From positions 3,136,001-3,200,000 of the forward strand of contig OZ241744.1 in NCBI GenBank assembly GCA_965200965.1: a stretch of DNA of 64,000 nucleotides. The letters run 5' to 3'. The notes under the pieces are model-generated. The model was not told the origin of the DNA, ran no database searches, and saw only the letters and a list, made by a program, of their open reading frames with translations. Every line of letters starts with the position of its first letter. Position 1 is the first letter of the stretch. This document shows positions 36,143 to 54,327 of the stretch, piece after piece. The translations under genes and the position numbers were made by a program. Source of the stretch: an uncultured Candidatus Binatia bacterium. Its GTDB lineage: Bacteria; Desulfobacterota; Binatia; Bin18.

Positions 36143-36193
36143 GAGGACGGAACGCGTCGCCTTCCGTTCAATCTGATGACACGTTCCGTCCTC
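36143..36193 (-). repeat. 51-bp palindromic element, copy A (intergenic; overlaps the stop codon of the SLT gene)
   Basis: Minus strand: GAGGACGGAACGTGTC atcagattgaacggaaggc GACGCGTTCCGTCCTC. Confidence 0.9.
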
Positions 36194-36890
36194 AGGACAC
36201 CAGACAGACCCGCACGGGCGCGAGTTCGTGTTTATCTGAGGGTGGGGACAGCGGATAGTCGAGAACCGGATAGAAAGGAGTGTAGCCGGAGCGGATTTTA
36301 TCGGCTCGCTGCAACACCTGGCGGACATATCGCTGCGTCTCCCGATAGGGGTGGTAGTCCCGCTGTTTCAGACGGGTCGGCCCCATATTATAGGCGGCCA
36401 GAGCGGGCTCCATATCATCAAAGCGGGACAGCATGGTTTTGAGATAGGACAGCCCGCCGTACACCAGGACCGGCAAGGCGTGCTCAGACCGGGACAGGCC
36501 GACTTCCTCCAGGGCGACAGGTCTGATTTGCAGCGGTCCACGTCCGCCCCGCGGGCCGCGTTTCATCGGGTCTCGGGTGTCGCTCTCCTGAAGCAGGAGC
36601 GCAACGGCCAAGGTCTCGTCCAACTCCAGTTCCCGCGCCAGGCAGCGGGTATACTGCTCAAGGGTAGGCCCGCCCCGGGGGGTCTTGTCCACGGCCGGCG
36701 GCCTCACCTGTCCCGCCGCTACCGCCGGCGGCTTTTGGCTCGGCTCCGGCTCTTGGCCAGGAATCGGCGCGACGCGCGGTGGTGGCTGAAGGAGGAGGAA
36801 CGTGACACTCAACAGCGCGACAGCCAGGCAGCCGTAGCGGTAAGCCGGATGACTCGGAAAGGGGGAGGGGTCAGTGTTCATACGATACAT
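36192..36890 (-). CDS. Lytic transglycosylase (SLT domain) protein
   Basis: AAGGAG RBS, N-terminal TM, LLLQES, GPLQI, ALAAYNMG, ETQRYV. Confidence 0.85.
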   Translation of the reverse strand: MYRMNTDPSPFPSHPAYRYGCLAVALLSVTFLLLQPPPRVAPIPGQEPEPSQKPPAVAAGQVRPPAVDKTPRGGPTLEQYTRCLARELELDETLAVALLLQESDTRDPMKRGPRGGRGPLQIRPVALEEVGLSRSEHALPVLVYGGLSYLKTMLSRFDDMEPALAAYNMGPTRLKQRDYHPYRETQRYVRQVLQRADKIRSGYTPFYPVLDYPLSPPSDKHELAPVRVCLVS

Positions 36891-37226
36891 TTCTCCTTGG
36901 GATGCAAGGTTTCTCAGCAGACGCAAGGCAACACGGCAGGGCTGGCGGATCGGCCGGTGTCGCTCAGCAGCGATGATAGACGGGGGGGGGTATTCCACCT
37001 GGATTGATTCGCGGTGACAAGTCCCGGCATGGGAGATGCCAGACTTGCGCGGGAGGGCTGATATGGCAGCATTTCACTATCCGCAGTCCGCGACGACAGA
37101 GGCACCGCTTGATCAGCTTGCCCAGCGGGCGATTCCTCTGGCTGCCGGCCTTCTCGCCAAGCGGCAGCACAACAGGTCGGCCCATAGTGCCAAAATTGCC
37201 CGCATGATGGAAGACCCCCTCGCCCT

Positions 37227-41019: not shown

Positions 41020-41103
41020 GCCGGGATGGCGGAATTGGTAGACGCAGTGGACTCAAAATCCACCGCTGGCGACAGCGTGCGAGTTCGAGCCTCGCTCCCG
41101 GCA
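41020..41103 (+). tRNA. tRNA-Leu(CAA)
   Basis: GCCGGGA/TCCCGGC acceptor stem, GTGGA-CTCAAAA-TCCAC anticodon arm, long variable arm, GTTCGAG T-loop; CCA not encoded. Confidence 0.96.
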
Positions 41104-41153
41104 GTCGCCCACTCCCCTATCCGCCTGCCTCTCCACACAAGCCCTGATATCTG

Positions 41154-41168
41154 TTACCTGTAAGGTAA
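41154..41168. promoter_or_regulatory. Palindromic candidate operator upstream of higBA
   Basis: TTACCT-GTA-AGGTAA inverted repeat 18 bp before the toxin start. Confidence 0.5.
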
Positions 41169-41186
41169 TGTAAAGCAGATACCAGG

Positions 41187-41522
41187 GTGGAAATCGTCTT
41201 TCGGACTACACGGCTCGCCAAAACGTTCAACTCTGCCAGCGCTCTCCAGGCGGCATACGGCGGCCGCATAGCGCCTGTTATTATGAAGCGTCTTGCAGTT
41301 CTCAAGAACGCCAGGACACTATTGCTGGTACCGACCAGCCGGCCGGAGCGACGCCATCAGCTTCGTGGTGGGCGGAGCGAGCAGTACGCCGTCGATCTCG
41401 TGCATCCCCACCGGCTGGTTTTCACACCAAACCATGAGCCGCTCCCACGCAGGGCGGATGGAGGGGTGGACACGGACCAGGTAACCGCAATTACCATTAT
41501 TGAAGTAGTGGACTACCACTGA
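41187..41522 (+). CDS. higB: HigB/RelE-like toxin (plasmid maintenance killer family)
   Basis: MEIVFRTTRLAK, RRHQLRGGR.EQYAVDL..PHRLVF, IIEVVDYH end. Confidence 0.85.
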   Translation: MEIVFRTTRLAKTFNSASALQAAYGGRIAPVIMKRLAVLKNARTLLLVPTSRPERRHQLRGGRSEQYAVDLVHPHRLVFTPNHEPLPRRADGGVDTDQVTAITIIEVVDYH

Positions 41523-41536
41523 AGGAGGGTAAGGAC

Positions 41537-42637
41537 ATGGGGACTGAGGCCCATCACTACCGACCCGACTACGCGGTTGCGCCGGGCGCAATCGTGCTCG
41601 AGCGCCTTGCGGCGCGTGGCATCTCGCGGGCCGAGTTCGCCCGGCGGTGCGACCGCTCCCCAAAGCGCCTCAGTGAGATCATTGCTGGAAAGGCACCGGT
41701 TGAGCCGGAAACGGCTCTGCAATTCGAGAAAGTCTTGGGTGTTGATGCAAGCATCTTGCTCGGCATTGAAACAGACTATCAACTCCATCGGGCGCGTGAG
41801 GCTGAGGCGAAAAAAACACAAGAGGCCTCTTCCTGGACACAGGCGTTTCCCCTGCAAGAGTTAGTGAGGCGAGGGATCATGGAGAAGCCTTCCTCCGATT
41901 CCAACACGGTGGCACGGCTGCTGACCTTCTTTGAGGTCGGGTCGGTCAAGGCCTGGTACGCGAAGTATGAACGGATGAGCGTTGCCTATCGACATTCGCC
42001 GAGCTTCAGGAGCGAAACACCCGCACTGGCAACCTGGCTGCGGCTTGGGGAGTTGGAGGCAGAGAAGCAGGAATGCGCCGATTACGACGCAGAGCAGTTC
42101 AGGCGGGTGTTGAGGAGAATTCGTGGGCTTACCCAGACGCCAGTAGCAGACGCTATAGAAAAGGCGCAACACCTCTGCAACAAGGCCGGTGTTGTGCTGG
42201 CTCCGCTCAAGCCTTTCCCCAAAATCGCGCTCAGCGGTGCCGCCTGGTGGTTGACCCCTCGCAAGGCGGTGATTACGCTCAGCGCACGCCATAAAACAGA
42301 CGATCACCTGTGGTTCAGCCTGTTCCACGAAGCGGCCCACCTCCTGCTGCATAGCAAGAAGGCCGTTTTTCTTGACGGGATGCAGAAGAATAACACTGGT
42401 GCGGACATTGAGACGCAGGCCGACAAGTGGGCGTCCGATTTTCTTGTTCCTCGTTCTCATTGGGAGCAGTTTGTCAACGCGGCTTCCTACAGCGAAAGGG
42501 CTATCCGTCAATTCGCCAGGGAACAGGACATAGCCCCAGGCATCATTGTCGGGAGGCTTCAGCACGAAAAGCATCTCAGCTGGGGAACGCCTCTGAACAA
42601 GCTGAAAGTACGGCTGGAGTGGAAAACGGCCTCGTGA
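41537..42637 (+). CDS. higA: HigA-type HTH antitoxin fused to an ImmA/IrrE-like metallopeptidase
   Basis: PDYAVAPG, HTH with ETALQFEKVLG, WFSLFHEAAH (HExxH), E.QADKWA. Confidence 0.85.
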   Translation: MGTEAHHYRPDYAVAPGAIVLERLAARGISRAEFARRCDRSPKRLSEIIAGKAPVEPETALQFEKVLGVDASILLGIETDYQLHRAREAEAKKTQEASSWTQAFPLQELVRRGIMEKPSSDSNTVARLLTFFEVGSVKAWYAKYERMSVAYRHSPSFRSETPALATWLRLGELEAEKQECADYDAEQFRRVLRRIRGLTQTPVADAIEKAQHLCNKAGVVLAPLKPFPKIALSGAAWWLTPRKAVITLSARHKTDDHLWFSLFHEAAHLLLHSKKAVFLDGMQKNNTGADIETQADKWASDFLVPRSHWEQFVNAASYSERAIRQFAREQDIAPGIIVGRLQHEKHLSWGTPLNKLKVRLEWKTAS

Positions 42638-42657
42638 ACGATCCAAGCCTGTCTGCA

Positions 42658-45600
42658 ATGACAGCGGTCCCGGATTCCAAATTTGACCGCCTGAAGGCCA
42701 TCCTGCGGACGATGTTCCAGCTCGACCGCGGGGATCTCGACTTCGGCCTGTACCGGATCATGAACCGGAAAGCCGGGGAAATTACGCATTTCCTCGACAC
42801 CGAACTGTTGCCGCAGGTCCGGGCTGCGTTGGCCGGCAACAGCGCCGGCCAGCAGGCCGCACTGAACAAGGAACTGGAGCAGGCCAGGCAGCAGGCCAGG
42901 GGGTTGGGCGTTGACCCGGACACCACCCCCGCGGTCCGGGAGTTGCAACGCCGGTATGCCAATGCCAGGGCCGACGCCAACGCAGAGGCCGAGGTCTACA
43001 ACCACCTGACCAACTTCTTTAGCCGCTATTATGACGAGGGCGACTTCATGTCGTTGCGCCGGTATTCGGGCGGTGGCCGGCCGACCTATCTGATTCCCTA
43101 CAACGGCGAGGAGGTGAAGCTGCACTGGGCCAATGCCGACCAGTATTACGTCAAGTCAACCGAGAATTACGCTGCCTATGTTTTCACGCTGGCCACGGAC
43201 GCACAAACCCGCCGGGTGCGCTTCGAGATCACGCGGGCGGACACCGAACGGGACAACGTGAAGGAAACCGCCGGCCGCCAGCGTCGCTTTGTGCTGGCCG
43301 AGGACCCAGGGTCGGTCGTTGTTGACAAGGGCGAACTGGTCGTTCGTTTTGAGCACCGGCCCCTGACGGCCACCGAGAAGAAAGCCTATCCCTCCGGCGG
43401 CAAGCAGCAGGACCGGATCAACGAGGCGGCACGCGACCGCATCCTGAAAGCCCTGCCCCCGGACTGGCTGAGGCCGCTGGCCAGCCCCGCCCCGTCCGAG
43501 AGGACGAAACGTGTCACCAGCTCGGGAGGAGGGCGATACGTTTCGTCCTTGAGCCAGCCCGATCGCACCGTGCTGGACAAGCACCTTGCCGTCTACACGG
43601 CCAAGAACAGCTTTGATTATTTCATTCACAAGGACCTGGGCGGCTTCCTGCGGCGCGAGTTGGACCTGTACCTGAAGACCGAGGTGCTGGACCTGGACGA
43701 CCTGGCGATGAGCGACACCGCCCAACTCAACCGGGCCTTGGGACGCCTGCGGGCCGTCCGCCAAGTGGCGGACAAGATCATCGCCTTTCTGTCCCAGATT
43801 GAGGACTTTCAAAAGCAGCTCTGGCTCAAAAAGAAGTTCGTGCTGGACACGCACTATTGCGTGACGCTCGACCGCGTGCCCGAAGCCTTCTACCCAGCAA
43901 TAGCGGCCAACAAGGCCCAGCATGACGAATGGCTACGGCTGTTTGCCATTGACCGGATTGCGGCCGCCCTGACCACCCCCGGTTACACCAACCCCCTGAC
44001 CGTGGAGTTTCTGAAAGCCAACCCCTTTCTGGTGCTGGACACCCGCCACTTTGACCGGGACCTGAGCGACCGGCTGCTCGCCGCCCTGTCAGACGCCGGG
44101 CCGCTTGACGAGCAGATGGACGGCCTGCTTGTCCACGGCGAGAACTTCCAGGCGTTGCACCTGCTCCAGACCTGCTATCAGGGGCAGGTGCAGTGCGTCT
44201 ACATCGACCCGCCGTATAACACCGGAAATGACGACTTCCTGTACAAAGACAGCTATGAAGATTCAAGTTGGCTGTCCATGATGCAGAACAGACTGACGCT
44301 AGCCTATCAACTGCTTGATAAGAATTCAGGAAGCCATGCAATCAGCATTGATGACCGAGAGTTGTCCGCTCTCTTATTTTTGCTACGAAGCGTTGCTCTC
44401 GAAAAGGCTGCTAAAACCGTTACTGTGAAGATGGCTGAACCGACCGGAGTGAAGATGGCACATGTTGTACGCTCTGGTGGGATTCCTAAGCTCAAGGAGT
44501 ATATCGTCCTTGCCAAACCGTCGGGAATTCAGGGTTTTCATCTTGAAAAAGTGCCAAAGGAACAATGGGACGCCGAATACAACTTGATGGTGACCGGTAT
44601 CTCGCATGATGAAGTGAGATGGCTGAAGGACATCATCCATGACTCAAATAGAACGGATGGAGATGTGAAAATTGCTGATGATCTATGTCAGCGTATTTCC
44701 CTACGGCCAGTTGCGGAGATACTTACTGAAAATGGTGTTCCATCCAAGCAAACCGATTCTTGGAAGCGTGAGAATGCCTGGCGGATCGTTCGCACGGTTG
44801 CCACAACCGCTAGCGCAAAAACTTTGGCTGATGAAAAGAAGAGGCATTTTCCCACAAACTGCTTCACTGTGGTGACTTCTTTACAGCGAATGTACGTTAT
44901 GAAAGCTGAATATGAACGGGAGGCAGAACAACCCCGCGTCCGCATTCTATTTGCGGATGACTATCTGAACGTTCATCCTGGCGATTTCTGGCAGGACATT
45001 AAAACGACCGGCCTGGATAATGAGGGCGGGGTTGAGTTGATCAGTGGGAAAAAGCCGGAAAAGCTCCTCAAGCGTATAATTGGAATGGCCTCTTCGTCTG
45101 GAGAGTTGGTTTGTGATTATTTCCTCGGTAGTGGTACAACCACTGCCGTAGCTCAGAAGATGGGCAGAAAATGGCTTGGAGTCGAGTCAGCACCCTTCTT
45201 TGCGAGTCTTCCACTTAAGCGGATGAAATTGGTGCTCCGCGGAGAAAAAGGTGGAGTCAGTGAAGAGGAATCTTGGAAGGGCGGTGGCCTATTCAAATAC
45301 ATCCGCCTCGAATCCTACGAAGACACGCTGGACAGCCTCGAACTTACCCCCCGCTCAGACGCGCAGGAGGAACTGCTGACCGCCAACCCGGCCCTGGCCG
45401 AAGATTACCTGTTGCGCTACACCCTTGGCGAAGAAACAGCCGCCAGCGCATGCCTGCTGGGCACGCATTTCACCGACCCCTTCGCCTACACCCTGTCGGT
45501 CGTGCGGGACGGCGCACGCCGGCAAACGCCTGTTGACCTGCCCCAAACCTTCAACTACCTGCTCGGCCTGCGCGTCTCAGCCTGGCGTCGCCTTGACGGC

Positions 45601-45858
45601 CTGCTGACCATCACCGGGACCGATGCCTCGGGCCAACGCTGCCTGATCCTGTGGCGCAATCTGAACGACACCGACAACGCCGGCCTGAGCGACTGGTTCA
45701 CCCGCCACCGGCCGGCCTTTGCCGAGCCGTTTGATCTGCTCTACGTCAACGGCGACCACACCCTGAACGCCTTGCGACAGCCACACGACACCTGGACAGC
45801 CCAGACCATCGAGCCGGTCTTCCGGGAGCTGATGTTTGCGAATACCCGGAAGATGTAG
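42658..45858 (+). CDS. mod: Type III restriction-modification methyltransferase (Mod); alternative GTG start at 42634
   Basis: DLDFGLYRIMN, YNGEEVKLHWANADQYYVK, DYFIHKDL, YIDPPYNTG, DYFLGSGTT, YIRLESYEDTL. Confidence 0.92.
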   Translation: MTAVPDSKFDRLKAILRTMFQLDRGDLDFGLYRIMNRKAGEITHFLDTELLPQVRAALAGNSAGQQAALNKELEQARQQARGLGVDPDTTPAVRELQRRYANARADANAEAEVYNHLTNFFSRYYDEGDFMSLRRYSGGGRPTYLIPYNGEEVKLHWANADQYYVKSTENYAAYVFTLATDAQTRRVRFEITRADTERDNVKETAGRQRRFVLAEDPGSVVVDKGELVVRFEHRPLTATEKKAYPSGGKQQDRINEAARDRILKALPPDWLRPLASPAPSERTKRVTSSGGGRYVSSLSQPDRTVLDKHLAVYTAKNSFDYFIHKDLGGFLRRELDLYLKTEVLDLDDLAMSDTAQLNRALGRLRAVRQVADKIIAFLSQIEDFQKQLWLKKKFVLDTHYCVTLDRVPEAFYPAIAANKAQHDEWLRLFAIDRIAAALTTPGYTNPLTVEFLKANPFLVLDTRHFDRDLSDRLLAALSDAGPLDEQMDGLLVHGENFQALHLLQTCYQGQVQCVYIDPPYNTGNDDFLYKDSYEDSSWLSMMQNRLTLAYQLLDKNSGSHAISIDDRELSALLFLLRSVALEKAAKTVTVKMAEPTGVKMAHVVRSGGIPKLKEYIVLAKPSGIQGFHLEKVPKEQWDAEYNLMVTGISHDEVRWLKDIIHDSNRTDGDVKIADDLCQRISLRPVAEILTENGVPSKQTDSWKRENAWRIVRTVATTASAKTLADEKKRHFPTNCFTVVTSLQRMYVMKAEYEREAEQPRVRILFADDYLNVHPGDFWQDIKTTGLDNEGGVELISGKKPEKLLKRIIGMASSSGELVCDYFLGSGTTTAVAQKMGRKWLGVESAPFFASLPLKRMKLVLRGEKGGVSEEESWKGGGLFKYIRLESYEDTLDSLELTPRSDAQEELLTANPALAEDYLLRYTLGEETAASACLLGTHFTDPFAYTLSVVRDGARRQTPVDLPQTFNYLLGLRVSAWRRLDGLLTITGTDASGQRCLILWRNLNDTDNAGLSDWFTRHRPAFAEPFDLLYVNGDHTLNALRQPHDTWTAQTIEPVFRELMFANTRKM
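43500..43550 (+). repeat. 51-bp palindromic element, copy B, in frame inside mod
   Basis: GAGGACGAAACGTGTC accagctcgggaggagggc GATACGTTTCGTCCTT; encodes RTKRVTSSGGGRYVSSL. Confidence 0.9.
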
Positions 45859-45887
45859 GTCGGCTCAGCCACCAGGCGTAAGCCGAC
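45855..45887 (+). repeat. GTAG-type REP-like palindrome overlapping the mod stop codon
   Basis: GTAGGTCGGCTCAGCCACCAGGCGTAAGCCGAC; same layout as 5128-5157; degenerate copy at ~47089. Confidence 0.7.
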
Positions 45888-45922
45888 AAACCAGCATCCG
45901 CCCCTGCCCACACGGAGAAAAG

Positions 45923-46159
45923 ATGAGCCCAGAAATTATTGCCATCGCCACCGTAGGCACAGCCCTGGCCGCCCTGATCCTGACCGGCCAGCGGACCATC
46001 CGCGCCGAACTGGCCGCCCAGCGTCAAGACCTCGCCGCCCAGCGGCAGGACTTGGCCGCCCAACGCCAGGACCTCGCCGCTTTGCGTGAGCGAATGGCCC
46101 ACCTTGAGGGGCTGCTTGAAGGGCTCCGGGAAGCCCTCACCCGCGAGCGAGCCGCCTAG
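45923..46159 (+). CDS. Small N-terminal TM + heptad-repeat coiled-coil protein, copy 1
   Basis: GGAGA RBS; LAAQRQD x3 encoded by 21-bp tandem repeats. Confidence 0.75.
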   Translation: MSPEIIAIATVGTALAALILTGQRTIRAELAAQRQDLAAQRQDLAAQRQDLAALRERMAHLEGLLEGLREALTRERAA

Positions 46160-46183
46160 AAGCCTGATGTTCAAAGGAAAAAT

Positions 46184-47107
46184 GTGATGGCATCCAAAGA
46201 CGACGATTTCTACAAGCAGACCTTTTCACAACGGGAAGGCAAGGCCCCACTGCCTGAGCCTATGCGGCTGGAGCATATCCCACAAAAATTCAGACAGTTG
46301 GTATGGGGCTTTATAGACAAAGAAATTGCTGCCTCGCGCTGGCTTAGTCCGGGTGAATTCGGTCGTGGTTCGTCTCAATGGCGCGACCGTAGCAGGAATC
46401 TCGGGATCATTATAAGAGCCTACAAATTCAATATCCTGGGGATGTTGCATGATGAAATAGGTCGATGTGACCCGGAAGACTCTTTAATATTTTTCAAGCA
46501 AGTGATAACAGAGGGGAAATACCACGAAATCCTGGCGCTCATTGAATTCGTCCTGCGACACGAACTCTGTTCGGAAACTCTCCGCAAGAACCTCGTTAGC
46601 GCTTTTGACGACACTCCAATCGCTTATTTCGTTGAGGAGATAAATGGGGTTCCAACCATTATGCCACGGGTGAGCCGTGAAGCTGGTGAGGGGACACAGC
46701 AAGCCGTCCAGAGTATAAGCGCAGGTGGCTTCGAAGGAGCGGCAACCCATCTACGGCAAGCAGCGGAGCAGATAAACACGGGACAATATGCAAAGTCGAT
46801 TGTGGACAGCATCCACGCCGTTGAATCCGTAGCGCGTGAAATTGCTCCAAAAGAGAGCAAAACCCTCGGCCCCGCGCTCAATTCTCTTTCAGAGGCCGGG
46901 CTTCTGCATCCGGCGCTCAAGGAGGGATTCAAAAAGATATACGGTTACACAAACGACGAGCAGGGAATACGACACCCCCTTGTTGATAGGGACTCCCCCG
47001 ATGTCGGGCTGGATGAGGCCATGTTCATGTTTGGGGCGTGCGCGTCCTTTACCGCTTATCTCGTCAGCAAACACCGGAAGATGCAGGGCGGCTCAGCCAC
47101 AGGCTAG
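46184..47107 (+). CDS. AbiJ-NTD4-like / HEPN-like abortive-infection-associated protein
   Basis: TFSQREG N-terminus, SIHAVESVAR, TLGPAL, LHPALKEGFKKIYGYTND.QGIRH, EAMFMFGACASF; lower GC. Confidence 0.65.
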   Translation: MMASKDDDFYKQTFSQREGKAPLPEPMRLEHIPQKFRQLVWGFIDKEIAASRWLSPGEFGRGSSQWRDRSRNLGIIIRAYKFNILGMLHDEIGRCDPEDSLIFFKQVITEGKYHEILALIEFVLRHELCSETLRKNLVSAFDDTPIAYFVEEINGVPTIMPRVSREAGEGTQQAVQSISAGGFEGAATHLRQAAEQINTGQYAKSIVDSIHAVESVAREIAPKESKTLGPALNSLSEAGLLHPALKEGFKKIYGYTNDEQGIRHPLVDRDSPDVGLDEAMFMFGACASFTAYLVSKHRKMQGGSATG

Positions 47108-47184
47108 CGGCTTCCGCTCCGTCTATCCGCCCCGCGGCTGCCCACACGGAGAAAAGATGAGTCCAGAGATTATTGCCGCCCGGG

Positions 47185-47433
47185 TCAGGATGCAGCTTGC
47201 CCGTTGCTCCATAACTCATACTCGCTGATATCAATATCGCTGCTCCACACCACCGCATAACCGCCCCGCTCTACTTGAACGGATCTGAAGAAAGCCGGGG
47301 TTTTCAGAGGGGCAAACCGTTCTCTTTTGAGCAAAGGCACCACATCATATGTTCGTTTTTGCGCGTTATCAAATCCAACCAGAAGAGTATGGTCGTCAAT
47401 GATTTCAACAGATTGTATCCTGGGATATGGCAT
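47185..47433 (-). CDS. DUF2442-like protein (putative TA partner)
   Basis: IQSVEII.DHTLLVGFDN...FAPLK...FFRSVQV..GG.AVVW..DIDI. Confidence 0.75.
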   Translation of the reverse strand: MPYPRIQSVEIIDDHTLLVGFDNAQKRTYDVVPLLKRERFAPLKTPAFFRSVQVERGGYAVVWSSDIDISEYELWSNGQAAS

Positions 47434-47435
47434 GG

Positions 47436-47578
47436 CTACTCCAACGGTGGTAGTCTGCGAAACTCCTGAGAGTTCCACATTTCGTTCAGTTCCCGCCTGT
47501 TCAGAGTTGCCCACTCACTAACAAGTTTTCTGGCTCTTTGCGGCAGATCGCCTTCTATTATTTCCAAAGTAAGGAGGT
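47436..47578 (-). pseudogene. 5'-truncated DUF4160-like gene
   Basis: TLEIIEGDLPQRARKLVSEWA.LNRRELNEMW...RLPPLE; N-terminus missing at the repeat junction. Confidence 0.7.
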
Positions 47579-47582
47579 AAAG

Positions 47583-47798
47583 ATGAGTCCAGAGATTATT
47601 GCCATCGCCACCGTAGGCACAGCCCTGGCCGCCCTGACCCTGACCGGCCAGCGGACCATCCGCGCCGAACTGGCCGCCCAATGTCAGGACCTCACCGCTT
47701 TGCGTCAGGACCTCGCCGCTCTGCGTGAGCGGATGGCCCACCTGGAGGGGCTGCTTGAAGGGCTCCGGGAAGCCCTCACCCGCGAGCGAGCCGCCTAG
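47583..47798 (+). CDS. Small N-terminal TM + coiled-coil protein, copy 2
   Basis: Near-identical to 45923-46159 but one heptad shorter; AAGGAGGT RBS. Confidence 0.75.
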   Translation: MSPEIIAIATVGTALAALTLTGQRTIRAELAAQCQDLTALRQDLAALRERMAHLEGLLEGLREALTRERAA

Positions 47799-47857
47799 CC
47801 GGCTGTGTCAGCTTCCGCTCCGCTCTTCCGCCCTGCACCCCGGCGGCTGACCAAAGG

Positions 47858-50800
47858 ATGTTGCTCATGCCTCAGACAGGCACCACGCCCCTGCAAAACC
47901 GCCTCGTGCTGCACCGCTTTGTCTGTCGGGAGTTCGGCTATGAGGACATGCCGGCCATGCTGGACCGGCTGCGCAACGTGCCGGCCCGGCTTGACCCCAG
48001 TGGCGAGAGCGAGTACGCCCGCGCCCTGTACCTGAACCCGGATCGCGCTACAGTCAGCCCCGAGCATCTGGCCACCTACGACGCCAACATCACGGCCCAC
48101 AGCCGCCGGCTGCGCCTGGCCGGCGAACACGGGCGGACCTGGAAGCCCTATCAGTACCTCGCCCTGCTGTTCACCGAACACTACCTGTGCCGCTATTTTG
48201 ACGACCCCGAAGGGCTGCGGGCTGCGCTGAACGCGGCCAGAGGGCTTGACCCGGCCATGCCCGAGTATACGCCCGAGGAACTGCGCACCCTGGCCTTTCA
48301 GAGCGCCACCGGCTCGGGCAAGACCCTCCTCATGCACGCCCACATCCTGCAATTCCAACACTACCGCAAGCGGGCCGGCCAGCCGCTCAACAACATCGTC
48401 CTGCTGACACCCAACGAGCAGATGTCGGGCCAGCACGAACGCGAGTTGCGGGCCAGCGGCCTGTCGGCGCGCCTGTTCTCTGCCGAAGCCGGGGCCGAGC
48501 TGTTCTCACCCATCGAGATCATTGACCTGAACAAGCTGGCCGAAAAGACGGGCGTCAAGCGGGTGGCTGTGCAGGACTTTGGCGACAATAACCTTGTACT
48601 GGTTGATGAAGGACACCTGGGCGCGTCCGGCAAGGTGTGGCGCGAGCGGCGCAAGGAGTTGTCCCGCGGCGGCTTTACCTTTGAGTATTCGGCCACCTTC
48701 AACCAGATCGCCACCAAGAAGGAAGCCGACCTGCTCAATGCCTACGGCAAATGCCTGCTGTTTGACTACGCCTACCGCCAGTTTCACGACGACGGCTACG
48801 GCAAGGACTACGCCATCTCCAACCTGCCGGAGGACGCCGGCAACCGCATGTACCTGCTCGGCTGCCTGCTGACCTTTTACCAGCAGTGCCGCATCTGGCG
48901 GGACAAAGGCGCGGGCTGGGCGGCCTTCAACCTCGCCAAGCCGCTGTGGGTCTTTCTGGGCAAAACCGTCACCGGCTCCAGCCAGACCAACGTCCAGACC
49001 AGGTCTGACGTTGCGCTCATCCTGGACTTCCTGGCCTGGGTGCTGGCACACGGGCAGGCGGTCCGGCCCATGCTTGCCCGCCTGCTGGCCGGTCAATCCG
49101 GCCTGTCTGACGAGCGGGGCCGGGAGTATTTTGCCGGCCGCTTCGCCTATCTCACCCAGCAAGGAGTGAACGTGTCATCAGATCGACAGGAGGGCGACAC
49201 GTTCACTCCTTCCCGCGCCGGCGACCTGTACGCCGATATGTGTCAACTCCTGTTCCACGGCCAGGGCCGGCTCCATGTCGTCTATCTGACCGCCGGCGAA
49301 GGTGAACTGCACCTGCGCAGCGCCGATAACCCGGTGTTCGGCGTGGTCAACATCGGCGACGCCGCGGCCCTCTACAGCCTGCTGACCGAACAGGCGAACC
49401 CCGACCTGTCCACCGAGCGGGAAGCCGGCTTTGCCGAGCGGCTGTTCGCCGACATGGACCGGCCGGACTCGCCGGTCAACATGGTCATTGGCGCACGGCG
49501 CTTTATTGCCGGCTGGAACTCCTGGCGGGTCAGCACAATGGGGCTGATGCATGTCGGGGTGGGCGAAGGGCCGGAGATCATCCAGATGTTCGGCCGCGGC
49601 GTGCGGCTCAAAGGCTGGAAGGCCGGCCTCAAACGCCACCGCCACAGCGCAGTGCCGCCGCCCAAGGACAGCGCCGAGCTGGCCGAACTGGAAACGCTGT
49701 ACATCTTCGGGCTGCGTGCCAACTATATGCAGACCTTCCGCGACCTGCTGCACAAAGAGGGGATGCGGGTGGAGCGGGAAACCGTCAGGCTGCCCGTGAC
49801 CTGGAACCTGGGCCAGCGGCCAGACCTGAAACTGCTCCGTATCCGGGCCGACCAGCAGTTTGAATGCTCCGACGAGCACCCGGTCCTGCCCAACCCTGAT
49901 GAGCCGGGCCGGCCGCTGGTGACGCTGGACCTGTACGCCCGGTTGCAGGCCGTGGCCTCCGGGGCAGCACCGGCCGGCCCCATTCAGCACCAGACCCCGG
50001 TTACACTTGAGCCGCGCCATACCGGCTTTTTCAACTACAGCCGGCTCTACGACGCGCTGCTGAGGCAAAAGCAGCACAAGGGCTGGCACAACCTGCGTAT
50101 CAGGCCAGAGACAGTTGAGCGTCTGTTGCAGGATAGCGGCTGGTACAAGCTGTACATGCCGGCGGAGCGCCTGAATGTGGCCGATTTTCAGGGCGTGAGG
50201 GCGCTGGAAGACATCGCGCTTGCGCTCATCACCGCCTATGCTGATCAGTTCTGGCGCGCTCAGCGCCGGCGCTGGGAGAGCGACAACATGGAGGTGGTCA
50301 GGCTGGACGAGGCTGACCCCAACAATGTGCGGACCTACGAGTTGTCGGTGGATGCCGCCCACAGCCGGCTGATCGACGACCTGCGCCAACTGGCGGCAAA
50401 TGTCAGGGAAGGTTATTGCGCGAGCCTGCAACTCGGCGTCATGCTGGCCGGGGCGCACGCCTATCAGCCGCTTGTGTACGCCGGGGAGGGCTGCCAAGTC
50501 AGCGTCCGGCCGCTGGCCCTGGACGAGCATGAGAAACTGACGGTCGAGAAACTCGCGGCACTGGCCGAGGGCCGGGACCCATGTCTCGGCGGCAGAGATC
50601 TGTATCTGATCCGTAACCTGAGCCGGGGCCGGGGCGTATCGTTTTTTGACGACTTCGGCTATTACCCCGACTTCATCGTCTGGCTGAAAAACCCGGACTG
50701 CCAGCACATCATTTTTCTTGACCCCAAAGGCTTGGGCCGGTTCGGGGGCAGAGAGCGCCGAAAGGTCGAGTTGCACCGCACCATCAAAGCCCTTGAAGAG

Positions 50801-50977
50801 CGGATTCGGAAAACCGACCCCGACCTGCGCCTGCACGCCTACGTCCTGTCCGTCACCCCGGCACACGAGATTGACGACGGCAGCCGCCCTGCCTCCGCCT
50901 GGCAGAACGCCGGCGTCTATTTCCTGGAGGAACCCGATTGCCTGAAGCGGGTGATTGAGCACGCCTTGGGCGCGTAG
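47858..50977 (+). CDS. res: Type III restriction endonuclease/helicase (Res)
   Basis: SATGSGKT, LVDEGH, FEYSATF, IQMFGRGVRL, C-terminal YYPDFIVW...FLDPKG nuclease. Confidence 0.9.
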   Translation: MLLMPQTGTTPLQNRLVLHRFVCREFGYEDMPAMLDRLRNVPARLDPSGESEYARALYLNPDRATVSPEHLATYDANITAHSRRLRLAGEHGRTWKPYQYLALLFTEHYLCRYFDDPEGLRAALNAARGLDPAMPEYTPEELRTLAFQSATGSGKTLLMHAHILQFQHYRKRAGQPLNNIVLLTPNEQMSGQHERELRASGLSARLFSAEAGAELFSPIEIIDLNKLAEKTGVKRVAVQDFGDNNLVLVDEGHLGASGKVWRERRKELSRGGFTFEYSATFNQIATKKEADLLNAYGKCLLFDYAYRQFHDDGYGKDYAISNLPEDAGNRMYLLGCLLTFYQQCRIWRDKGAGWAAFNLAKPLWVFLGKTVTGSSQTNVQTRSDVALILDFLAWVLAHGQAVRPMLARLLAGQSGLSDERGREYFAGRFAYLTQQGVNVSSDRQEGDTFTPSRAGDLYADMCQLLFHGQGRLHVVYLTAGEGELHLRSADNPVFGVVNIGDAAALYSLLTEQANPDLSTEREAGFAERLFADMDRPDSPVNMVIGARRFIAGWNSWRVSTMGLMHVGVGEGPEIIQMFGRGVRLKGWKAGLKRHRHSAVPPPKDSAELAELETLYIFGLRANYMQTFRDLLHKEGMRVERETVRLPVTWNLGQRPDLKLLRIRADQQFECSDEHPVLPNPDEPGRPLVTLDLYARLQAVASGAAPAGPIQHQTPVTLEPRHTGFFNYSRLYDALLRQKQHKGWHNLRIRPETVERLLQDSGWYKLYMPAERLNVADFQGVRALEDIALALITAYADQFWRAQRRRWESDNMEVVRLDEADPNNVRTYELSVDAAHSRLIDDLRQLAANVREGYCASLQLGVMLAGAHAYQPLVYAGEGCQVSVRPLALDEHEKLTVEKLAALAEGRDPCLGGRDLYLIRNLSRGRGVSFFDDFGYYPDFIVWLKNPDCQHIIFLDPKGLGRFGGRERRKVELHRTIKALEERIRKTDPDLRLHAYVLSVTPAHEIDDGSRPASAWQNAGVYFLEEPDCLKRVIEHALGA
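49161..49211 (+). repeat. 51-bp palindromic element, copy C, in frame inside res
   Basis: AAGGAGTGAACGTGTC atcagatcgacaggagggc GACACGTTCACTCCTT (perfect 16-bp arms). Confidence 0.92.
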
Positions 50978-53335: not shown

Positions 53336-53386
53336 AAGGACGGAACGTGTCGTCAGAGCAAATGGAAGGCGACATGTTCCGCCCTC
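53336..53386 (+). repeat. 51-bp palindromic element, copy D, just upstream of the hydrolase start
   Basis: AAGGACGGAACGTGTC gtcagagcaaatggaaggc GACATGTTCCGCCCTC. Confidence 0.88.
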
Positions 53387-53525
53387 GTGGTGTAAACCAC
53401 GCGCTGGCATTTGTCCAGTACGCAGCTTCAGCTTCGAATCGGGGGCCGTATCCCTTGCGCAGACCCCCGGCCTTTAGTAAGAGGTGTACTGAATGCCGAA
53501 CGATCGTATGAAGGAGGACCAGCGT

Positions 53526-53912
53526 ATGAGTGCCCACGAGATCGAAGCCCTCACCAGAGAGTTCTTTGACACTTTCAGCCGCAACGACATGGCCGCGGCG
53601 GCAAGCATGTTGTCCGATGACCTTGAGGTCATTGACCATGTGCCCTATCGGTTTGACACCAAGCAGGAGTTTGTCGAGTTTCTCCACAGCGCAATGGCCG
53701 GCATTGAGGCCGGAACCTTTGGCTGTCGGCAACTGTCGTGCCGGGTGTTCAATGACAACGGGGCGGTGGCCAACACCTACGACACCTTTTCGGGCGTGGG
53801 CAAAAACGGCAAACCCATGAGCTCCCACGGCCGCACCACCCTGGTGTTTGCCAAAGAAGGCGGCCAGTGGAAGATTGTCAGTTGCCACTTCTCGCCGCTG
53901 CCCAGCCACTAA
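53526..53912 (+). CDS. SnoaL/NTF2-like protein, paralogue 1
   Basis: GGAGG RBS; GRTTLVF..EGGQWKIVSCHFS. Confidence 0.85.
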   Translation: MSAHEIEALTREFFDTFSRNDMAAAASMLSDDLEVIDHVPYRFDTKQEFVEFLHSAMAGIEAGTFGCRQLSCRVFNDNGAVANTYDTFSGVGKNGKPMSSHGRTTLVFAKEGGQWKIVSCHFSPLPSH

Positions 53913-53943
53913 ACGCGATATCCCTTTTCAAGGAGGACCGCCC

Positions 53944-54327
53944 ATGAGTGCAGAAATTGAGGCCCTGGCCCACGAATTTTTCGCCGCCTTCACCAGAAAC
54001 GATATCCAGGCCGCCCTGGATATGCTGTCTGACGACCTGGAGGTCATTGATCATGTGCCCTATCGGTTTGACACCAAGCGGGAGTTTGCCGGGTTTCTCC
54101 ACGGCGCGATGGCCGGCATTGAGTCGAATACCTCGGCCATACGGCAGCTCTCGTGCCGGGTGTTCAACGACAGCCTGGCCGTTGCCAACGGCTACGACAC
54201 CTTCAGCGGGGTGACAAAAAGCGGACAGGGCCAGAACCTGAACGGCCGCACCACCCTGGTGTTTGCCAAAGAAGGTGGCCAGTGGAAGATCGTCAGCTGT
54301 CATTTTTCGCCGCTGCCGACGCACTAG
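53944..54327 (+). CDS. SnoaL/NTF2-like protein, paralogue 2
   Basis: GGAGG RBS; highly similar to the upstream gene. Confidence 0.85.
   Translation: MSAEIEALAHEFFAAFTRNDIQAALDMLSDDLEVIDHVPYRFDTKREFAGFLHGAMAGIESNTSAIRQLSCRVFNDSLAVANGYDTFSGVTKSGQGQNLNGRTTLVFAKEGGQWKIVSCHFSPLPTH

Follow-up and report, generated by a model that had tools for sequence, protein, structure and literature searches.

In-frame copies of a 51-base hairpin repeat in both subunits of a type III restriction-modification system from an uncultured Binatia bacterium

Among described elements, the Rickettsia palindromic elements (RPEs) offer the nearest parallel to the repeat considered here. They are dispersed non-coding palindromes that occur between genes and also in frame inside unrelated housekeeping genes, where a peptide is predicted to be added without destroying the fold (PMC10969869, PMC1458961). 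RPEs are about 150 nucleotides (nt) long with a CGTC-tagged end (PMC10969869, PMC3733652), and the CGTC class, to which they are linked, has no associated transposase (PMC3733652). In R. bellii, 53 of 526 RPEs are intragenic. IS200/IS605 and TnpA-REP are described as moving by single-strand HUH transposition (PMC8266576). The subject here is a 51-base hairpin repeat in the genome of an uncultured Candidatus Binatia bacterium, and in particular two copies that interrupt, in frame, the mod and res genes of a type III restriction-modification (R-M) system. The window, meaning the whole stretch of DNA analysed, comprises 64,000 nt (assembly GCA_965200965.1, contig OZ241744.1, positions 3,136,001 to 3,200,000, forward strand). 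The features first concerned are as follows, with lengths of proteins in amino acids (aa).

42637..45858, plus strand: type III Mod (methyltransferase), 1073 aa, GTG start
43500..43550, plus strand: hairpin element copy B in Mod, 51 nt, in frame, no target duplication, C at -4 in the left flank
44221..45290, plus strand: target-recognition region of Mod, of low GC content (48%), exchanged for another in conspecific strains retaining insert B
47858..50977, plus strand: type III Res (helicase-nuclease), 1036-1039 aa
49161..49211, plus strand: hairpin element copy C in Res, 51 nt, in frame, no target duplication, C at -4 in the left flank

The two inserts are very probably independent copies of a genome-wide hairpin repeat, likely translated and likely near-neutral in Mod and Res. 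Insert B interrupts a codon after its second base, insert C one after its first; each adds 17 codons and leaves the frame open, and the coordinates, peptides and empty-site readings given for both in the initial annotation were confirmed. Clean 17-aa gaps had been expected in homologues. In G007, the closest relative of the genome of the window (G000, 3.62 Mb) and a member of the same genus, exact 17-aa (51-nt) gaps are found by tblastn and blastn in both mod copies and in res, with no duplicated flank; another genome, G025, has an identical gap in mod and a similar gap in res. At the insert site, 112 of the 120 best Mod homologues are shorter by exactly 17 aa, five carry insert B and are 98% identical over the N-terminal part, and three differ by -18, -15 and +27 residues, the last of these looking like an alignment artefact. 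The Res site is length-variable: of the 120 best homologues, 117 fall short by 11-19 residues (64 of them by exactly 17), two possess longer, unrelated loops, and the remaining one represents the cluster of the window itself. Residues of equal length were not found at these positions in homologues lacking the palindrome. Two Res homologues from other organisms, P0217 and P0238, carry unrelated 21-36-residue repeats of their own at the insert C site.

Inserts B and C match at 39 of 51 bases. Each is closer to other copies in the genome (43 and 48 of 51), so the insertions are independent, as the initial annotation had suspected. Both fold as hairpins of about -32 kcal/mol (z = -3.8, 0/200 shuffles). 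The mod insert is spanned by contigs X3 and X8 of other studies and the res insert by X3, X8 and X12, so that an assembly artefact is ruled out; contig X1 spans both too and may be the source sample. Near-identical DNA is present in runs labelled sponge metagenome. Five conspecific Mod clusters contain the insert, and in four of them the specificity region is different, which suggests that the R-M system stayed in use after insertion. Copy B in the window is separated from five conspecific variants by one His-to-Tyr change, located in the stem.

The catalytic motifs of both subunits are, as judged from sequence, intact despite the inserts. Mod matches Pfam N6_N4_Mtase and has MTase_III as its best PADLOC match (E = 9.8e-169), with DPPY at 524 and DYFLGSGTT at 827-835; its GTG start was placed by means of homologues, the frame being open from 42427. 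Res matches Pfam ResIII, has REase_III as its best PADLOC match (E = 2.7e-139), and retains GSGKT (Walker A), DEGH (DExH) and PD motifs. A sequence search of the PDB with the Res alignment returned no match, that is, no solved Res relative by sequence. In AlphaFold models both inserts are coil with pLDDT scores below 50, lying between helices (Mod 287-308; Res 434-451), and the models are consistent with loop placement. The models themselves are weak (mean pLDDT 58.9 for Mod and 66.3 for Res), and the loop is weak evidence, because AlphaFold scores any insert absent from the alignment low. It is from sequence that we infer the translation and enzyme activity of insert-bearing Mod and Res. The tolerated loop insertions that the initial annotation had proposed are supported.

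An iterated profile search of the 3.62-Mb genome (E < 1) returned 107 hits to the element, as against three weak ones on the reversed genome. Near-full copies, defined by at least 12 of 17 paired stem positions and E < 0.1, number 88, and all are distinct in sequence. The stem, of 15-16 bp, starts with RARG, ends with CYTY and has a conserved mismatch close to its top; the loop is rich in purines. Across an alignment of 55 copies, pairing holds in 91% of the stem cells and two-sided changes occur in 12 of the 17 pairs; this covariation is equal in intergenic copies, making it a property of the family, and may arise from arm-to-arm correction rather than from selection on RNA. No target duplication of at least 4 bp flanks any of the 88 copies, with 2 bp duplicated in nine and 3 bp in five. 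No element matched Rfam, and exact-pattern scans gave no match in the metagenome contig collection and one in the genome contig collection. A literature search covering titles and the starts of abstracts, without subscription journals or supplements, found nothing on the element. Two further copies lie in the window.

36143..36193, minus strand: element copy A, whose first two bases finish the stop codon of a 268-aa open reading frame (ORF) at 36192-36998
53336..53386, plus strand: element copy D, lying between genes at a distance of 7 nt from where an alpha/beta hydrolase gene is called to start; site empty in G007

Genome-wide, copies contribute to the ends of genes. Eight supply the stop of an adjacent gene and three a called start, the genes concerned including one for a SIS-domain protein, and element ends resemble a Shine-Dalgarno sequence followed by TGA and GTG (e.g. 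L024 7274-7324). In 65 intact copies, one 5' end is A and the other G in 43, with A/A in 14 and G/G in three. This state has no tie to loop direction, target C or replication strand; the asymmetry may reflect loop inversion together with arm correction.

Coding copies were identified by removing the element in silico and requiring the interrupted frame to score as coding on both sides. By this test 29 of the 88 copies are coding, against an 86% coding share of the genome, a count that includes copy 90163, which is probably intergenic, and the ‘stop’ case 3576550, which lies near a gene end. The other 59 comprise 32 intergenic copies, 11 that overlap a gene end and 16 inside called genes that fail the stricter test. 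Only two of the 29 contain a stop in the host frame, compared with 10.0 expected for random orientation and phase (P = 2.7e-4), and all six orientation and phase classes are in use bar the one that nearly always contains a stop. The single clear stop-containing coding copy (L090 1984-2810) is within an already fragmented enoyl-CoA hydratase region. Hosts in G000 include genes for ThrRS, DnaX, a CCA-adding enzyme (two copies), a Mur ligase, MurJ, an IspE-like GHMP kinase, a D-Ala-D-Ala carboxypeptidase and cas3, while in relatives they include IleRS, AddB, BamD and a MiaB-like protein. The two cas3 inserts compared with orthologues correspond to exact gaps. Neither splicing nor bypass would lead to the removal of stops, so that translation of the inserts, without splicing, is the likely state.

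Removal of the element from RNA, as a tiny intron or through ribosome bypass, or its excision from DNA in part of the population, would leave normal proteins, and the long stem closing both ends and the empty sites without scar could be read in this way. The depletion of stops makes such removal extremely improbable. In addition, the element's length is divisible by three, it is found in both orientations, Rfam offers no match, and in four DNA-contig runs none of the 15 listed joints (57 more exist) skips 51 nt at either site. A role for the hairpins in tuning mod and res expression at the mRNA level, by pausing, cleavage or polarity, must also be rated very improbable. The folds are stable, the covariation is strong and the inserts occur in all close strains that could be read. 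Yet the covariation belongs to the family as a whole, the insert is absent from 114 of the 120 Mod homologues (15-18 residues shorter) and from the 117 shorter Res homologues, and the His-to-Tyr difference between copy B and its conspecific variants falls in the stem. The orientation bias of coding copies is marginal once stop-free frames are counted (21/27, p = 0.051), and the analyses run lend tuning no support.

The initial annotation had further considered preferential targeting of this defence locus. A defence set was drawn up of 57 called genes (N6_N4_Mtase, ResIII, N6_Mtase and cas3) amounting to 113.8 kb, or 3.6% of coding DNA, with housekeeping helicases among the ResIII matches left out by judgement. 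It contains six of 30 near-full intragenic copies where 1.1 would be expected (p = 6e-4), and nine of 36 when partial copies are included; the excess over other genes is real. It could mean that the element is steered to R-M and cas3 genes, for example to blunt the restriction exerted by the host, or owing to frequent breakage or single-strandedness of these loci. In keeping with this, cas3 holds three copies, and partial copies in another Res, an HsdM and another Mod coincide with extensions of 12, 5 and 12 residues over homologues, the last measured against a 37%-identical protein. The intergenic density (32 copies in 488 kb), multiplied by the 64% of frames that are stop-free, already predicts 4.8 copies in the 113.8 kb. 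The observed six are close to this, and tolerance thus accounts for the excess without targeting. Other coding DNA has 8 copies per Mb, where about 42 would be expected if insertion were neutral. Most simply, few inserts are purged from defence genes and about four-fifths of them from other genes. Steering is accordingly rated quite improbable, and there are other points against it: 50 of the 57 defence genes have no copy, the three cas3 copies form one cluster, and the inserts leave their genes unbroken. The four copies of the window cluster within 17 kb, which makes a double hit on mod and res an expected kind of event. Among 38 host or neighbouring proteins in seven relatives, taken from non-random regions around top-scoring copies, none was an R-M or Cas protein. 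The defence set is also incomplete, being limited to three Pfam families and cas3 with nine hits lacking a called gene, so the true coding fraction is larger and the excess would shrink.

Some results do not sit easily with tolerance alone. The excess persists when mod and res are set aside (4/28, p = 0.015, three of the four in cas3), as it does for genes counted with partial copies (5/28, p = 0.002), and the neutral benchmark assumes that intergenic DNA is unconstrained. With about 100 sites that are mostly outside defence genes, preferential targeting is not needed; of the initial interpretation, independence and tolerated loops are supported. The copies are likely to be selfish DNA merely tolerated by defence genes, with no adaptation of the R-M system. 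In outline, the element would land more or less randomly in the neighbourhood of existing copies and of the replication origin, and selection would then remove most coding insertions. Survivors would be those between genes, at gene ends and in stop-free frames within loops. The rate of retention would be close to neutral in dispensable R-M and cas genes and about one-fifth of that in other genes.

Empty sites were mapped between G000 and 28 stretches of G007. The 47 G007 copies fall into seven exact empty sites, five within 3 nt, eight shared, 20 other gaps and seven unmappable; the 107 G000 copies into 11 exact, two near, seven shared, nine other, four with one flank and 74 outside the fetched stretches. 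Most mappable sites are therefore private to one lineage, and some are older than the split of G000 and G007. Some of the sites are unclean, with gaps of other sizes at 20 of 47 G007 sites and nine of 33 mappable G000 sites. At two sites the loop direction is opposite in the two genomes, the result of in-place inversion or re-insertion.

The insertions follow a target rule. Of 65 intact copies, 61 have a cytosine at the fourth base ahead of the junction on one strand or both (52% expected), as do all 18 exact empty sites, including seven G007 insertions outside the first set. In the 65 copies it is present on both sides in 17, on one in 44 and on neither in four. With one fitted parameter each, a one-sided target model fits (p = 0.74) and a symmetric one is rejected (p = 0.0009). 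The target side is not tied to the replication strand (25:19) or the transcription strand (17:24). There is no mutual information between element columns and flank positions that would signal a guide, and no complementarity between element and target beyond that of shuffles.

Copies are clustered, with gaps below 5 kb in 30 of 87 cases against 9.9 expected. Copies within 3 kb of each other have an identity of 0.79 and those more than 30 kb apart one of 0.68-0.69; local subtypes reappear in the orthologous loci of G007, at different positions. Together, these features suggest short-range spread from founders. The quarter of the genome nearest the origin (around the GC-skew minimum at 2.485 Mb, close to mnmE/mnmG) holds 41 of 88 copies and 24 of 55 clusters. 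By a strict pattern, related forms of 50-57 nt occur in 27 of 55 genomes of the family, all within two Binatia genera, and in none of 19 genomes of the other eight genera; a covariance model found none in 124 genomes of other families.

The hairpin, the lack of duplication, the one-sided target and the local spread together suggest a single-strand, HUH-like route. IS200/IS605 transposition is not known to duplicate its target. By analogy with IS200/IS605 and REP/RAYT, the element may move as a single-strand hairpin by ‘peel-and-paste’, with an HUH enzyme acting in trans, a proposal to which we give somewhat less than even chances. Against it stand the lack of any Y1 or Y2 transposase in G000 or G007, the lack of an element copy near 20 Y1 loci of relatives, and the absence of replication- or transcription-strand bias noted above. 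From the offset target base, the missing guide signal and the missing strand bias, it can be argued that this is not a described HUH system. It is possible, with a chance that is appreciable yet clearly below even, that an unrecognised or host enzyme is responsible. That the element is a 51-base DNA dumbbell spreading without a transposase of its own, moved by a host or undescribed enzyme and representing a new minimal class of mobile DNA, is a rather doubtful proposition. Were it true, scar-free insertions three bases downstream of a cytosine would be arising in two sister genomes without the tested transposase families, and the proteome, with its defence enzymes, would have undergone a natural scan by in-frame loop insertion.

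Tolerated insertion might also involve an ordinary miniature inverted-repeat transposable element (MITE) of a blunt-cutting DDE insertion sequence since lost. The 16-bp terminal inverted repeats and the lack of coding capacity fit this, as do the many IS4/5-, IS1595- and IS630-type transposases in other genomes of the genus. It is improbable all the same, given the absence of duplications from all 88 copies and the rejection of a symmetric target. In a search that did not extend to IS256, IS66, ISL3, Tn3, serine recombinases or Cas1, G000 has no match for Y1_Tnp, Y2_Tnp, IS110, DDE_Tnp_1 (IS4/5-type), IS1595, rve or DDE_3 (IS630-type), and G007 has none for the six of these seven families tested there. 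Both genomes thus lack a match to the IS4/5-, IS1595- and IS630-type families, yet each has private insertions. The DDE genes of relatives have no element copy nearby, and no unpaired arms flank a transposase in G000 or in a limited sample of 20 stretches of four relatives. Relatives do contain unpaired arms, among them two inverted pairs with spacings of 2.6 and 2.9 kb, which were set aside as separate degenerate copies or chance matches.

Other candidate enzymes in G000 are few. Its only reverse transcriptase, presumably Abi-like, is interrupted by a stop, and its two tyrosine recombinases would be XerC and XerD. There are two TnpB-domain matches, one weak and one frameshifted without an adjoining TnpA. 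At the site equivalent to the latter (L034 2863-4135; L173 4643-6103), G007 has an intact orphan TnpB, again with no TnpA beside it. Self-comparison of G000 by BLAST is dominated by two tandem arrays (C1 ~271700-305600 and 1131700-1165200) of units of about 2.4 kb with 90-95% identity, the two arrays being mutually related.

What is learnt about the R-M system as such is modest, namely two loop sites that tolerate insertion in a large Mod and Res of type III without a solved close relative. The R-M angle is an ordinary consequence of the element family, and the mobiliser and the one-sided target rule are of more interest. How coding palindromes such as RPEs spread is a long-open question, for which this family is unusually tractable, with about 100 copies in one genome, 27 carrier genomes, paired empty and filled sites, strict length, a target rule and host genomes nearly free of insertion sequences. 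It also offers a quantitative picture of selection on in-frame inserts, in defence genes and in others.

The surroundings of mod and res include one more feature.

45919..47805, no strand assigned: cargo between mod and res, an AbiJ_NTD4/PDC-S32 gene and a DUF4160/DUF2442 pair, flanked by copies of a small heptad-repeat ORF

The two flanking copies of this ORF are imperfect direct repeats, and it has eight tblastn matches genome-wide. Upstream of mod (41020-42637) there are a tRNA (Rfam), then an ORF without Pfam match that we take to be HigB-like, then a gene for a helix-turn-helix and IrrE/ImmA peptidase protein, directly 5' of mod, with a weak PD-Lambda-2_B match. The R-M locus looks like a tRNA-anchored defence island. 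The corresponding G007 locus (L011 9106-16590) has two tandem full mod genes with different specificity regions upstream of one res, as well as the 75-aa start of a third mod; the tandem genes are a possible reservoir for specificity shuffling. For a genome of 3.6 Mb, the methyltransferase load of G000 is very large (32 N6_N4_Mtase, 18 N6_Mtase and 24 ResIII matches), and insertion sequences seem to be almost absent from it. At 53493-54327 of the window, genes encoding small proteins are duplicated in tandem with about 80% identity (repeats D1 and D8).

Compared with known systems, the locus is a type III R-M system in its order of mod before res, its best PADLOC matches, its motifs (DPPY and FxGxG in Mod; Walker A, DExH and PD-(D/E)xK in Res) and its exchangeable specificity region. 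It differs in the large size of Mod (~1070 aa) with a long N-terminal extension, in the cargo genes that separate mod from res, and in the 17-residue insert in each subunit. As for the element, integron attC sites have RYYYAAC...GTTRRRY ends, a length of at least about 57 bp and a dedicated integron integrase. The repeat was rejected as an attC site, its AAC/GTT pair being internal, 35 nt apart and variable, in a genome with only two tyrosine recombinases.

Bacterial MITEs such as RUP, Correia/NEMIS and ERIC (PMC10969869) are likewise short, non-autonomous, high in copy number and bounded by terminal inverted repeats. Here the element is much shorter, every copy is distinct, and no cognate insertion sequence was found among the families searched. 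It was not classed as a classical MITE: it is multi-copy and non-coding with inverted repeats, and leaves no target-site duplication, as the 18 exact empty sites also indicate. With REP/REPIN-RAYT and IS200/IS605 (PMC8266576, PMC3733652) it shares its hairpin DNA, its clustered distribution, the occasional copy inside a gene and an asymmetric choice of site. It differs in having no GTAG at the hairpin foot, a conserved target base three bases off the junction, no guide-like correlation between element and flank, and no strand bias. REP/REPIN-RAYT was rejected on the missing GTAG, the lack of a RAYT in G000 and G007 and the Y1 loci of relatives that lie apart from any copy.

The closest likeness is to the RPEs. 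Both are dispersed palindromes that form stable hairpins and insert in frame into unrelated, otherwise intact genes. The present family belongs to another phylum, measures 51-57 nt rather than about 150 nt, has RARG/CYTY ends in place of the CGTC tag, which together with its length sets it apart from the RPE families proper, has a larger intragenic share (29/88 against the R. bellii figure given above) and follows the one-sided rule of a C at -4. By analogy, then, the element works like RPEs.

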